This document shows positions 33,378 through 55,285 of a stretch of DNA of 64,000 nt, one piece after another (positions within the stretch are counted from its first letter, which is position 1; each line of letters opens with the position of its first letter). The notes beneath the pieces are model-generated. The model searched no databases. It saw only the letters and a program-made list of their open reading frames with translations, and was not told where the DNA came from. Both the position numbers and the translations under genes were made by a program. Source of the stretch: Escherichia coli (GTDB lineage Bacteria; Pseudomonadota; Gammaproteobacteria; Enterobacterales; Enterobacteriaceae); the NCBI RefSeq assembly GCF_024502345.1, contig NZ_JALDNN010000001.1; one strand, 5' to 3'.

Positions 33378-33641
33378 AACATCCCTCTTAAATCAATCTA
33401 AAACTAATGCTAAATATTTAAAATATTGATGATTCGGTAGAATGCATATTAAAAGGAGGAAGAGCGCCTGGCTCTCCCTCACGTGCTGTTAAAAAAGTTG
33501 AACTAAAAATGATAGATAGTAACAACGCTACGCTGACAGCCACTCTTCCCATGTCGACATTCCTGAATGTATTCCCTTTTTCTTCATTCCAACAGAAATG
33601 GTATTCGACATAAATCGCTAACAGCGTGCGAAATCATACTA

Positions 33642-50326: not shown

Positions 50327-51121
50327 TCATAATAATTGCGGCGACGCAAAGCGACGGTTGTTTAAGACGGGCAGTTGCGCGCGCACCTGACGCACACGTT
50401 CGGGCGTCACTTCCGCCATAATGAGTGCAGGCATTTCTGACGCTGCCGCAATGGTGACGCCAAAGGGATCTATAATCCGGCTTTGCCCGATATTTTTGTT
50501 CCCGCACTCCCCCGCCGCCACCATATAACAGGTGGTATCCAGCGCACGAGCGGCAAGCAACGTTGACCAGTGATGCTCTTTGAGCGGCCCGCGAACCCAG
50601 GCGGCAGGAAGCACCAGGATTTCAGCTCCCTGTAATGCCTGTGCCAGCGCCAGCTCTGGAAAGCGTAAGTCATAACAGGTCATCAGACCGACCTTCATCC
50701 CTTCCACCTCCAGTAACGGAGCTATTTCATTACCAGCATCAACATGGCGTGATTCCTGAATGGCAAATGCATCATAGAGATGCAGTTTGGCATAACGGGC
50801 GACAATGTTTCCTGCCTGTAGCGCCACCAGCATATTCCATGCGCGCCCCGGCGTTGAAGGAACATGAATCGTCAGAATTGTCGTCATCATGTTACGTTTA
50901 CTTTCTCGCCGTAAACGTCCGAGGAATTCGCCTTCCAGCAGCTGTGCTGATTTAACCGATAGATCTGCATCATGATCATCGCGTGCCAGCAATGCTTCCG
51001 GCAGGACAAACAGCGATACGTCGTTTTCCGCCGCCTGCGCCATCAACGAGGCACAAATCTCAGCGTTCTTTTCCCACACAGATGTAACAGCAAACTGTCC
51101 TGCAGCAACCAGCATTGCCAC
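50327..51121 (-). CDS. ybeM: Carbon-nitrogen hydrolase (nitrilase superfamily) YbeM, apparently intact
   Basis: 264-aa uninterrupted ORF (start may be 2 codons downstream); GECGNKNIG around the expected catalytic Cys. Confidence 0.8.
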
Positions 51122-51207: not shown

Positions 51208-51591
51208 GTGTTACAACTTCTTTTAGCAGTTTTTATTGGCGGTGGTACAGGAAGCGTGGCGAGATGGCTGTTAAGTATGCGATTTAACCCGCTGCATCAG
51301 GCGATTCCGTTGGGGACGCTGGCAGCAAACCTGATTGGGGCATTCATCATAGGAATGGGATTCGCCTGGTTCAGCAGGATGACGAACATTGATCCAGTGT
51401 GGAAAGTATTAATCACCACCGGATTTTGTGGCGGTCTAACAACCTTCTCAACATTTTCGGCAGAAGTGGTGTTTTTGTTACAAGAGGGCCGCTTTGGCTG
51501 GGCGTTACTGAACGTTTTCGTCAACCTTCTGGGGTCTTTTGCCATGACAGCACTGGCTTTCTGGCTGTTTTCGGCCTCAACCGCACACTAA
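51208..51591 (+). CDS. crcB: Fluoride export channel CrcB/Fluc
   Basis: 127 aa; four TM helices; TTG start. Confidence 0.9.
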
Positions 51592-51596
51592 AGACC

Positions 51597-51626
51597 AAAA
51601 AAAAACCCGCTGATTAAGCGGGTTTT
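51597..51626. terminator. Bidirectional intrinsic terminator between crcB and cspE
   Basis: aaaaaaaaacccgc-tgattaa-gcgggtttt. Confidence 0.8.
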
Positions 51627-51645
51627 GAATTCTTGCTGACGTATC

Positions 51646-51855
51646 TTACAGAGCGATTACGTTTGCAGCAGAAGGGCCTTTGGCACCGTTAGTGATTTCG
51701 AACTCTACGCGCTGACCTTCAGCAAGAGTTTTAAAACCATTAGTCTGGATTGCAGAGAAGTGTACGAACACGTCTTTGCTGCCGTCTTCCGGAGTAATGA
51801 AACCGAATCCTTTGGACTCATTAAACCACTTAACGTTACCTTTAATCTTAGACAT
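51646..51855 (-). CDS. cspE: Cold-shock-domain protein CspE
   Basis: 69 aa from internal Met; KGFGFI (RNP1) and VFVHF (RNP2) motifs. Confidence 0.95.
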
Positions 51856-52029
51856 CAAAATTACCTTTACATGAAAAATAGACACAAATGCTGTGTCGGT
51901 TACCAGTACACCAATTGTGGTACGCTTTGTCCAGTGCAACTTTACTAAAAAGTGATAAAAGTCGCGTTATTTTTGATGTTACTTATTTTAGCTATTGATT
52001 TTAAAGAAGTTACTAAAACTTCATTTGTC

Positions 52030-52590
52030 TCAAAACTGAAAGCGCATCCAGGCAAAGTACACATTGCCATTGTTGTAGGTACCCGGAATGTAGGTCATCT
52101 GAAAAGTCACTGGGCCATAACCCACGGAGGCCAATGGCAGTAGAACCGGGAGAGGGATGTAATTCCAGTTATCGCGTGCCGTTACGCCAGCGGTGAATCC
52201 CAGACCTAAATGAAAATTTTCATCCGCCAGCGGTCGCCAGGTACTTTCCCATCCGTATCCGGCAATCGGTTCCCATTTGTTCCACGAGTCCTTAAATGCC
52301 ATGGCATACAGGCCATGCCAGTTTCCTTTTTCATCCCAACGCGACAGGCCAAAACCGCCACCCCACGGTCGCTCGTTATAGCGATCGGTTTTTTCTTTGT
52401 CGTAAGCGAAACGTGCATGCCAGGTGATGGCAGGAATATATAAATCATAATGTTCAGGCTGTTGCCAGGTTTGTGCAATATTTTCTCTAAACGTTGTCAT
52501 CCACTCATCTGCGTTAGCAAAAACTTTACCAACGCTGATTAACTGAATAAAAACAAAGGAAAAGATAGCGACATATTTACTCACGTTCAT
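52030..52590 (-). CDS. pagP: Lipid A palmitoyltransferase PagP
   Basis: 186 aa from internal Met; signal peptide; small beta-barrel. Confidence 0.92.
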
Positions 52591-53075
52591 TTGTGACCAT
52601 AAAACATTTATCAAAAATCTACTACTAGCATAGCAAAGCTACAATTAACATAACCTTAATAGACCCAACATAAAGAATAATCTGAATAGCTGCTCTATTT
52701 ATTTCCGCTTGTTCAAGTTAAATATTTCCGCGCATCGATTAAAGATGATGCGTCGTTTTCTGCGATGGGAATAGTCAAAAAAGAAAAACCAAGTCTTTTT
52801 TGATGACAAAATGCAATCAAGGAAAAATTATTTTATTTTTTAACTAGATACAACAATCATCTTAACGAAGTATATAATATAAATCGTCAACCTATGCTCA
52901 TGTTAGATTATTTTTTGAGCGCACAGCCGCAGCTAACACCATTGCAATTAACAAATTTGCATCAATCCACCATCAATTTACACACATTATTATGTGATAA
53001 TTGCCAACCGCTAAATATGCGTTTTGTTATCTATGTATAAAAACAGCAACTTCAATGTCTTAATGGCAGTTTTTC

Positions 53076-53089
53076 TTGATTTTAATCAG
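53076..53089. promoter_or_regulatory. FNR-like binding site upstream of dcuC
   Basis: TTGATtttaATCAg matches TTGAT-N4-ATCAA at 9/10 positions, ~90 bp upstream of dcuC ATG; dcuC is anaerobically induced. Confidence 0.4.
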
Positions 53090-53178
53090 CATTCATCGCC
53101 AATTTATTGGGCATATTTTTTCCTTAAGCTTTAGGAATTTTTTATTATTTACTTTGGGGCCTGGAGACAGGAAAAATT

Positions 53179-54564
53179 ATGCTGACATTCATTGAACTCC
53201 TTATTGGGGTTGTGGTTATTGTGGGTGTAGCTCGCTACATCATTAAAGGGTATTCCGCCACTGGTGTGTTATTTGTCGGTGGCCTGTTATTGCTGATTAT
53301 CAGTGCCATTATGGGGCACAAAGTGTTACCGTCCAGCCAGGCTTCAACAGGCTACAGCGCCACGGATATCGTTGAATACGTTAAAATATTACTAATGAGC
53401 CGCGGCGGCGACCTCGGCATGATGATTATGATGCTGTGTGGATTTGCCGCTTACATGACCCATATCGGCGCGAATGATATGGTGGTCAAGCTGGCGTCAA
53501 AACCATTGCAGTATATTAACTCCCCTTACCTGCTGATGATTGCCGCCTATTTTGTCGCCTGTCTGATGTCTCTGGCCGTCTCTTCCGCAACCGGTCTGGG
53601 TGTTTTGCTGATGGCAACCCTATTTCCGGTGATGGTAAACGTTGGTATCAGTCGTGGCGCAGCTGCTGCCATTTGTGCCTCCCCGGCGGCGATTATTCTC
53701 GCACCGACTTCAGGGGATGTGGTGCTGGCGGCGCAAGCTTCCGAAATGTCGCTGATTGACTTCGCCTTCAAAACGACGCTGCCTATCTCAATTGCTGCAA
53801 TTATCGGCATGGCGATCGCCCACTTCTTCTGGCAACGTTATCTGGATAAAAAAGAGCACATCTCTCATGAAATGTTAGATGTCAGTGAAATCACCACCAC
53901 TGCTCCTGCGTTTTATGCCATTTTGCCGTTCACGCCGATCATCGGTGTACTGATTTTTGACGGTAAATGGGGTCCGCAATTACACATCATCACTATTCTG
54001 GTGATTTGTATGCTGATTGCCTCCATTCTGGAGTTCCTCCGCAGCTTTAATACCCAGAAAGTTTTCTCTGGTCTGGAAGTGGCTTATCGCGGAATGGCAG
54101 ATGCGTTTGCTAACGTGGTGATGCTGCTGGTTGCCGCTGGGGTATTCGCTCAGGGGCTTAGCACCATCGGCTTTATTCAAAGTCTGATTTCTATCGCTAC
54201 CTCGTTTGGTTCGGCGAGTATCATCCTGATGCTGGTATTGGTGATTCTGACCATGCTGGCGGCAGTCACGACCGGTTCAGGCAATGCGCCGTTTTATGCG
54301 TTTGTTGAGATGATCCCGAAACTGGCGCACTCTTCCGGCATTAACCCGGCGTATTTGACTATCCCGATGCTGCAGGCGTCAAACCTGGGCCGTACCCTTT
54401 CGCCCGTTTCTGGCGTAGTCGTTGCGGTTGCCGGGATGGCGAAGATCTCGCCGTTTGAAGTCGTAAAACGCACCTCGGTACCGGTGCTTGTTGGTTTGGT
54501 GATTGTTATCGTTGCTACAGAGCTGATGGTGCCAGGAACGGCAGCAGCGGTCACAGGCAAGTAA
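53179..54564 (+). CDS. dcuC: Anaerobic C4-dicarboxylate transporter DcuC
   Basis: 461 aa; polytopic membrane protein; uninterrupted. Confidence 0.93.
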   Translation: MLTFIELLIGVVVIVGVARYIIKGYSATGVLFVGGLLLLIISAIMGHKVLPSSQASTGYSATDIVEYVKILLMSRGGDLGMMIMMLCGFAAYMTHIGANDMVVKLASKPLQYINSPYLLMIAAYFVACLMSLAVSSATGLGVLLMATLFPVMVNVGISRGAAAAICASPAAIILAPTSGDVVLAAQASEMSLIDFAFKTTLPISIAAIIGMAIAHFFWQRYLDKKEHISHEMLDVSEITTTAPAFYAILPFTPIIGVLIFDGKWGPQLHIITILVICMLIASILEFLRSFNTQKVFSGLEVAYRGMADAFANVVMLLVAAGVFAQGLSTIGFIQSLISIATSFGSASIILMLVLVILTMLAAVTTGSGNAPFYAFVEMIPKLAHSSGINPAYLTIPMLQASNLGRTLSPVSGVVVAVAGMAKISPFEVVKRTSVPVLVGLVIVIVATELMVPGTAAAVTGK

Positions 54565-54604
54565 ATAGTAATGCCGGAGGCAAGTTTCCTCCGGCTTTAT
54601 CATG

Positions 54605-55285
54605 TCACCCACTGTGGTATATGCGTTGTGGTCTGCCAACTTTGCCGTGAACAATTTCAGCAATAATCAGATGGCGGCTGGCGCAATATTCAAGATAACG
54701 CCTGGCAGTGGTGCGACTGATGGTCAGTGCCTGCGCCACCGTTTCTGCCGTATGTTGCACACCAGGCTCTTTAAACAGTTTTCGCACCGCGTTTAGCGTC
54801 AAGGGATCAATGCCGGTCGGCAGTTCGTCTTTAGGTTCACCGCGAGCATAGGCATTAAACATCTCATCAATTTGCTTCTGGCTGGCGCTATCAATACTTT
54901 CCAGCATATGTTTACGCTGGCGGAAACGGGTTAGCGTTTGCCCCAGCCGTTCATAGGCAATGGGCTTAATGAGATAATCAAATACACCACAACGTACGGC
55001 TTCAGACACCGTTTCCATATCGCTGGCTGCAGTGGTAAACACCACGTCGCCGGGATAATGCGCCTGCACCAGTTCATGCAATAAATTAATCCCTCTGCCG
55101 TCAGGAAGATAGTTATCGAGCAAGATTAGCCCCGGCTTAAAACGCTCGATCATCATTCGGGCCTGCGCCAGGTTTCCCGCCAGTAATATCTGACTGAATC
55201 CGGGAATGTGACGAATATATTCCGCATGCATCTCTGCCAGCGGCGTTTCGTCCTCAACGATCAATAGGGTTAATGGAGCTGTCAT
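54605..55285 (-). CDS. dpiA: Response regulator DpiA (CitB)
   Basis: 226 aa; receiver domain plus C-terminal HTH. Confidence 0.93.
   Translation of the reverse strand: MTAPLTLLIVEDETPLAEMHAEYIRHIPGFSQILLAGNLAQARMMIERFKPGLILLDNYLPDGRGINLLHELVQAHYPGDVVFTTAASDMETVSEAVRCGVFDYLIKPIAYERLGQTLTRFRQRKHMLESIDSASQKQIDEMFNAYARGEPKDELPTGIDPLTLNAVRKLFKEPGVQHTAETVAQALTISRTTARRYLEYCASRHLIIAEIVHGKVGRPQRIYHSG

Follow-up and report, generated by a model that had tools for sequence, protein, structure and literature searches.

Class II FNR promoters, exemplified by the dmsA, narG-type and yfiD-type promoters of Escherichia coli, carry an FNR site centred near −41.5. Another well-described arrangement is that of the H-NS-bound, IS5-activated regions of the bgl, flhDC and fucAO type. 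In PhoP promoters of architecture IV, such as those of Salmonella pagP and E. coli crcA (pagP), phased (T/G)GTTTA-like repeats lie just upstream of a weak −10 element. S1 mapping and footprinting of Salmonella pagP defined the −10 hexamer TATTAT and the PhoP box CTGTTTATAGTTTGTTAAG (PMC3335776), and the PhoP site lies 44 bp from the start in Salmonella versus 32 bp in E. coli crcA (PMC2908699). Additionally, Myers et al. (2013; PMC3688515) placed dcuC among the operons directly activated by FNR, with an FNR ChIP peak at 655,298.

Here we analysed the divergent intergenic region (hereafter, the gap) between pagP and dcuC in a 64,000-nucleotide stretch of E. coli DNA (hereafter, the window, whose positions are used below). 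We consider it very likely that the gap is a shared control region of the two genes, comprising an FNR promoter, a PhoP promoter and an H-NS-bound core. This reading draws on the identity, conservation and geometry of the sites and on how well they match ChIP data in the literature. The FNR site and the dual regulatory character of the region have already been published, with FNR, PhoP and perhaps ArcA and H-NS represented in genome-scale data; DcuC allows fermenting E. coli cells to export succinate and PagP modifies lipid A, and the region matters little beyond housekeeping annotation. The additions of the present analysis are modest: a phylogenetic footprint confirming that, across Enterobacteriaceae, both the imperfect FNR site and the distance from it to the −10 element are fixed, a precise placement of both promoters in line with sigma-70 ChIP peaks in the literature, a specific candidate for the sequence of a predicted ArcA site, and an origin for the length of the gap in a fast-evolving core instead of a hidden gene.

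The gap (52591–53178) matched 5375 of the 5426 complete E. coli genomes at a coverage of at least 80%, in 5392 places distributed over 5381 records. Identity was 100% in strain E2865 and 99.3% in K-12-like strains; the MG1655 counterpart, 655,969–656,556, is likewise 588 bp long. RefSeq annotation of the 100%- and 99.3%-identical records confirmed the flanking genes as pagP (crcA; 52030–52590, minus strand), encoding the 186-residue lipid A palmitoyltransferase, and dcuC (53179–54564, plus strand), encoding a 461-residue anaerobic C4-dicarboxylate transporter; cspE and crcB follow beyond pagP, and dpiA and dpiB beyond dcuC. No feature is annotated inside the gap in MG1655 or in the RefSeq records of identical or near-identical strains. 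The earlier note, made from the sequence of the window, had placed the gap at 52615–53178 (564 bp). Its right edge stands, but its left edge is 24 bp off, because the longest pagP open reading frame begins at a TTG at 52614 and not at the annotated ATG at 52590, the start of PagP (MNVSKY...).

Consistent with the same note, the gap is both very AT-rich (GC 0.313 compared with 0.509 for the window) and unusually long. At 588 bp it was the longest of the 65 annotated gaps over the corresponding stretch of E2865 (next longest, 454 bp; median, 54 bp), a comparison that holds for unbroken colinearity only over window positions 33626–64000, the first half of the window containing indels. Among stretches of the window free of open reading frames of at least 100 residues, it ranked third, behind a tRNA cluster and one stretch of 578 bp. 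Gap length is not conserved outside Escherichia: it ranged from 293 to 911 bp across genera, with 293 bp in Klebsiella pneumoniae and about 400–470 bp in Salmonella and Citrobacter. Several Enterobacter species have gaps of 710–911 bp, compared with 446 bp in others of the genus.

The dcuC-proximal part of the gap resembles class II FNR promoters of E. coli. Like them, it contains a 14-bp inverted repeat of the TTGAT-N4-ATCAA type, TTGATTTTAATCAG (53076–53089, plus strand, centre 53082.5), which agrees with the FNR consensus at 9 of 10 positions. The earlier note had pointed out this FNR-like site, and its end is indeed 90 bp upstream of the dcuC ATG. As a bare pattern the sequence is unremarkable, since the window contained 6 matches with at most one mismatch against 2.75 expected; its position and conservation, however, are far beyond chance. 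Among dcuC loci collected from 80 Enterobacteriaceae species, TTGAT-N4-(A/G)TCA(G/T) was found upstream of dcuC in all 80, with or without pagP as the neighbour, at a median distance of 100.5 bp from the ATG. The form TTGAT....ATCAG occurred in 57 of these species, GTCAG as the right half-site in 16, and other single changes in 7. Thus the half-sites were essentially fixed and the N4 spacer took 13 forms, as would be expected for a site bound by a dimer. A match not conserved in orthologous regions had been named beforehand as the outcome that would speak against an FNR site; instead, the match was recovered from every orthologous dcuC upstream region examined.

The site differs from the class II consensus in one respect. 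Its final base, at 53089, is a non-consensus G (ATCAG in place of ATCAA), and this G was kept in 74 of the 80 species. The imperfection itself may have been selected, possibly to tune the affinity for FNR. The sole apparent exception in position among the 80 species was Citrobacter amalonaticus S646, in which a leader insertion of about 235 bp shifted the site to −334.5. The insertion is GC-rich, has internal repeats in the form of two copies of GGGGCTCGCCCTTTCGGGGC-like stems, and resembles a small repetitive element; it separates the −10 block of dcuC from the ribosome-binding site.

Published data support the assignment of this site to dcuC. Table S6 of PMC3688515 lists the FNR motif CTGATTAAAATCAA at 655,281 (U00096.2), which is the reverse complement of TTGATTTTAATCAG and hence the same 14-mer. 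Anchored on this motif, U00096.2 coordinates equal 708,370 minus the window coordinate, a conversion that reproduces the motif position exactly. The motif lies under FNR peaks obtained by ChIP-seq and ChIP-chip (Tables 1, S5 and S6), including a peak at 655,340 given in Table S5 of the same study, the peak was retained at equal height in an hns/stpA mutant (Table S7), and dcuC is classed as 'Activated' by FNR (Table S8). The aerobic/anaerobic ratio for dcuC was 0.05, corresponding to about 20-fold higher expression anaerobically, and that for crcA was 0.29 (Table S12). Anaerobic induction of dcuC, together with a ChIP peak and fnr dependence published for the same site (PMC3688515), is a further likeness to class II FNR promoters. 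Taken with the conservation in 80 of 80 species, the published motif under a ChIP peak and the FNR-activated expression bear out the suggestion that the FNR-like site serves dcuC.

The predicted geometry of the downstream DNA would also fit a class II promoter. In a 20-species alignment, a conserved block, TTTATTcGGCAcATTT, lay 3′ of the FNR site at a fixed, ungapped spacing. From this block and a sigma-70 ChIP-seq peak we infer the dcuC −10 hexamer to be CATATT (53112–53117, plus strand), which reads CACATT in other genera and spans 29.5–34.5 bp from the centre of the FNR site. The predicted dcuC start at about 53124 would put the FNR site at −41.5, and the anaerobic sigma-70 ChIP-seq peak of PMC3688515 at 655,235 converts to 53,135, 11 bp downstream of that start. 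The spacing between the FNR site and the putative hexamer would therefore correspond to class II geometry, with the site one helical-phase-correct distance upstream of the −10 element and no −35 element. The ribosome-binding region, GGAGACAGGAAAAATT (53163–53178, plus strand), contains a conserved ACAGGGGAAA block and lies within a predicted leader of about 55 nt, which folded no better than its shuffles (z = +1.66). In the model we propose for this part of the gap, which takes up about 250 bp, an anaerobic [4Fe-4S]-FNR dimer would bind TTGAT-N4-ATCAG at 53076–53089, about 41.5 bp upstream of the start near 53124, and would replace the −35 element in recruiting sigma-70 RNA polymerase to CATATT at 53112–53117. 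The resulting dcuC mRNA would carry a short, unstructured leader.

Myers et al. (PMC3688515) remarked of dcuC 'TSS not in peak region', so another dcuC start may exist. A candidate is a sigma-70 consensus-like promoter, ATGACA-17-AATTAT (52803–52831, plus strand), from which dcuC could also, or even mainly, be transcribed with a leader of about 340 nt, possibly containing regulatory RNA elements. Besides being recovered by our consensus scan, the same hexamer pair was given by Shimada et al. (PMC3946193) as a constitutive dcuC promoter on the basis of RpoD genomic SELEX, and the remark quoted above means that the known dcuC start lies outside the FNR peak region. However, the O103 and 81009 alleles have a degraded −35 hexamer, ATAACA, the spacer contains indels in common E. 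coli alleles, and in other Escherichia species the region cannot be aligned. The would-be long leader gave no structure signal (z = −0.62), no sigma-70 peak lies there among the anaerobic ChIP-seq peaks retrieved from PMC3688515, and the promoter and terminator scan returned fewer promoter-like sites in the gap than in shuffled sequence (2 versus 4.7). We therefore regard activity of this element in vivo as doubtful and a substantial contribution to dcuC transcription as unlikely, and retain the predicted FNR-dependent start near 53124 as the preferred one.

At the other end of the gap, the region upstream of pagP compares closely with the architecture IV promoter of Salmonella pagP and E. coli crcA. 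A 16-species alignment revealed a single conserved block with the invariant columns GTTAAG...ATTnA...G-TA. Its G-TA part would contain the −10 hexamer TATGCT (52627–52632, minus strand; predicted start at about 52620), which aligns with the TATTAT mapped in Salmonella (PMC3335776). Supporting this placement, the sigma-70 ChIP-seq peak at 655,742 (U00096.2) converts to 52,628, inside the predicted hexamer. Both promoters of the divergent regulatory region proposed here thus agree with sigma-70 ChIP peaks, at 53,135 and 52,628.

Upstream of TATGCT, a motif scan found three PhoP-box-like, phased direct repeats with 2–3 mismatches (52634–52676, minus strand), including TATTAAggttaTGTTAA (52645–52661) and TCTTTAtgttgGGTCTA (52660–52676). 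Matches to the PhoP consensus (T/G)GTTTA-N5-(T/G)GTTTA with at most three mismatches abound by chance in the window (185 found versus 131 expected), and agreement with the consensus is not significant by itself; we base the assignment on where the boxes lie, on their conservation and on the literature. Indeed, TATTAAggttaTGTTAA lies 12 nt before TATGCT, a placement that fits the crcA distance of 32 bp reported in PMC2908699, and it shares columns with the footprinted Salmonella box across the 16 species. As in Salmonella, (T/G)GTTTA-like repeats are phased just upstream of a weak −10 element, and the E. coli block aligns with both the footprinted box and the TATTAT hexamer of PMC3335776. In contrast to Salmonella, the better-placed E. 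coli box is one helical turn nearer the −10 element, as noted in PMC2908699, and the E. coli half-sites are degenerate, with 2–3 mismatches. In our model, the pagP-proximal part of about 100 bp would be a PhoP-activated promoter whose boxes (52634–52676) overlap and precede the −35 position of TATGCT.

Control of pagP also appears to be linked to oxygen. Sigma-70 occupancy at its promoter rose about 10-fold anaerobically (37 to 366; PMC3688515, Table S2), and crcA/pagP mRNA was about 3.4-fold higher anaerobically (Table S12). Such oxygen-linked control of a lipid A palmitoyltransferase falls outside the usual PhoP account.

Additional regulators may act from the gap. In an arcA mutant comparison, Park et al. 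(2013; PMC3798270) found dcuC 4.1-fold and pagP 2.8-fold lower, and predicted an ArcA site of at least 15 bits in the gap shared by dcuC and crcA, where they recorded no ChIP peak. Three repeats phased by 11 bp, TGATGG, TGATGC and TGTTAA (52948–52975, minus strand), which we read directly from the sequence, form a candidate for this site; the TTAACA block, which corresponds to the TGTTAA unit, shows partial conservation between genera. Located at the dcuC-side edge of the core, the candidate may explain the ArcA dependence of both genes. Together with the PhoP boxes and with H-NS coverage, it agrees with the expectation that a gap of this length has room for several regulator sites. By genomic SELEX (PMC3946193, PMC8743547, PMC5493296), RpoD holoenzyme, RpoN holoenzyme and NtrC bind in the gap, and peaks of minor-sigma holoenzymes lie just outside it, within dcuC and pagP. 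These signals, which we treated as weak, could reflect extra promoters or simply sticky AT-rich DNA. A sigma-54 promoter, prompted by the RpoN/NtrC SELEX peak at 655,760, was considered and rejected: inspection by eye revealed no GG-N10-GC element either near 52,610 or within GGCAC, the conserved block at the −10 element of dcuC, and we took the SELEX signals as binding to AT-rich DNA.

Between the two promoters lies a hypervariable, AT-rich core (52730–52980). Pairwise divergence of the core was 8–14% within E. coli, about 22% to Escherichia sp. MOD1 and about 50%, effectively unalignable, to E. whittamii and its relatives; the corresponding values for the dcuC-proximal part were 0.3–2.7%, about 7% and about 17%. 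Both ends of the gap were nearly invariant within E. coli. Measured against a crude yardstick, the synonymous codon difference of the flanking genes (11–30 of the 461 codons of dcuC differed synonymously), the core evolves at a rate that is roughly neutral or higher, with indels. We attribute the unusual length of the gap to this fast-evolving AT-rich core and not to an unannotated gene. Polymorphism between E. coli alleles peaked in the same interval, at 14–19 differences per 100 bp compared with 0–5 in pagP and dcuC. In the O103-type allele the flanking genes were 99.1–99.5% identical and the core differed by 13.6%, a divergence so far above that of the flanks as to suggest a recombined segment. 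Over the whole gap, E. coli genomes fell into three identity bands of similar size (2244, 1588 and 1549 genomes).

The gap also shares features with H-NS-bound, AT-rich divergent regions that attract IS5. H-NS ChIP-chip regions at 654,590–655,558 and 655,584–656,283 (PMC3688515, Table S3) convert to 52,087–53,780 with a 25-bp break, which covers the whole gap and both gene starts, and an H-NS flag accompanies the gap promoter in the SELEX table of PMC3946193. Reported H-NS occupancy thus coincides with a tract whose GC content is 0.31 compared with 0.51 for the window. Like those regions, the gap, at 31% GC and under H-NS ChIP-chip coverage, received IS5 insertions under kanamycin selection (PMC6307192). 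It differs from them in that FNR occupancy was unchanged in the hns/stpA mutant (PMC3688515, Table S7) and in that split or IS-interrupted copies are rare in natural genomes, as seen from the 5392 places in 5381 records. In our model, the core, about 250 bp with little sequence constraint and bound by H-NS, would probably be a spacer or silencing scaffold only. A more elaborate role, which we consider improbable, would make it a tunable silencer or insulator whose alleles set the basal levels of pagP or dcuC, or their coupling, and in which IS5 may derepress pagP; a weaker variant would add a condition-specific transcript like the Shigella RNA discussed below, or a long dcuC leader. If true, IS5-mediated derepression of pagP would tie the gap to aminoglycoside tolerance.

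The length of the gap had also raised the prospect of an unannotated small RNA or peptide, and neither was borne out. For an RNA, the closest precedent is Ssr31 of Shigella flexneri 2a 301 (pagP/dcuC, 694,274–693,980, 295 nt, pagP strand), which was predicted from a promoter and a terminator and was positive by RT-PCR (PMC4782007). However, RT-PCR alone cannot tell an sRNA from read-through or DNA carry-over, and that study reported neither a Northern blot nor RACE for Ssr31. Our scan did find one weak terminator-like hairpin in the gap, GCGCATCGATTAAAGATGATGCGT followed by CGTTTTC (52730–52753, plus strand), which we judged not functional: its folding z-scores were only −1.25 and −1.42, and uncompensated changes disrupt its stem in Escherichia sp. 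MOD1 as well as in two E. coli alleles, O103 and CFSAN061763. An Rfam scan of 51500–54700 at E-values up to 10 returned nothing real in the gap, its sole real match being the cspA-type thermoregulator over cspE. Folding of both core strands, the putative long leader, both short leaders and the hairpin stayed within about 1.5 standard deviations of shuffles, and the z-scores of the core (52720–53030) were −0.9 on the minus strand and −0.6 on the plus strand. Moreover, no other part of the locus varies as much as the candidate region, the anaerobic sigma-70 ChIP peaks retrieved from PMC3688515 include no third peak in the gap, and neither MG1655 nor RefSeq annotates anything there. The supplementary tables of an E. 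coli 3′-end mapping study (PMC7815308) contain no dcuC or pagP entry. With no family match, an unconserved hairpin, no folding signal and a hypervariable sequence, an sRNA encoded on the pagP strand is highly unlikely.

A small protein is less probable still. A 48-residue frame (52894–53040) and a 36-residue frame (53024–53134) are both present in the window and in K-12, but no small open reading frame was convincingly kept across five E. coli alleles and Escherichia sp. MOD1. In the O103 allele the start codons of the 48-residue frame are gone, and in strain 81009 the frame is interrupted by a frameshift. The 36-residue frame begins with TTG, overlaps the FNR site and the −10 element, and survives only where other constraints conserve the DNA, with indels disrupting it in E. 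whittamii and related species. Neither frame is annotated in any record examined. Starts or frames are thus lost across alleles and what remains lies within promoter DNA, in agreement with the earlier view that the gap contains no convincing ORF or terminator. Finally, although the window contains several one-mismatch matches and one Salmonella subspecies has a GTGAT left half-site, the idea that TTGAT-N4-ATCAG arose by chance in an AT-rich sequence, or serves a different member of the CRP/FNR family (CRP, for instance), is effectively refuted by conservation in every species with a variable spacer, by the published FNR ChIP peak and FNR-dependent expression (PMC3688515), and by a geometry that fits a −41.5 site.

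Several further observations concern the locus and its surroundings. In E. coli 81009, RefSeq locus tags jump from RS20725 (pagP) to RS20735 (dcuC); it seems that a feature in between was once annotated and later removed, or belongs to a type that is not displayed. The urinary isolate E. coli MINF_8D, which has a deletion of dcuC, dpiA and dpiB, carries an IS1 element about 150 bp into the gap (at about 52740), with citC immediately after it. Beyond pagP, the Rfam cspA thermoregulator (RF01766) matched cspE and its leader at 51598–52040 on the minus strand, with 124 bits against a gathering score of 78. This match is the expected 5′ UTR of the cold-shock family and also fills the 174-bp gap between pagP and cspE. 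Farther along, ybeM (50327–51121, minus strand), encoding deaminated glutathione amidase, is intact at 264 residues in the window, likewise in E2865; in K-12 (b4581) and MINF_8D a frameshift has made it a pseudogene.
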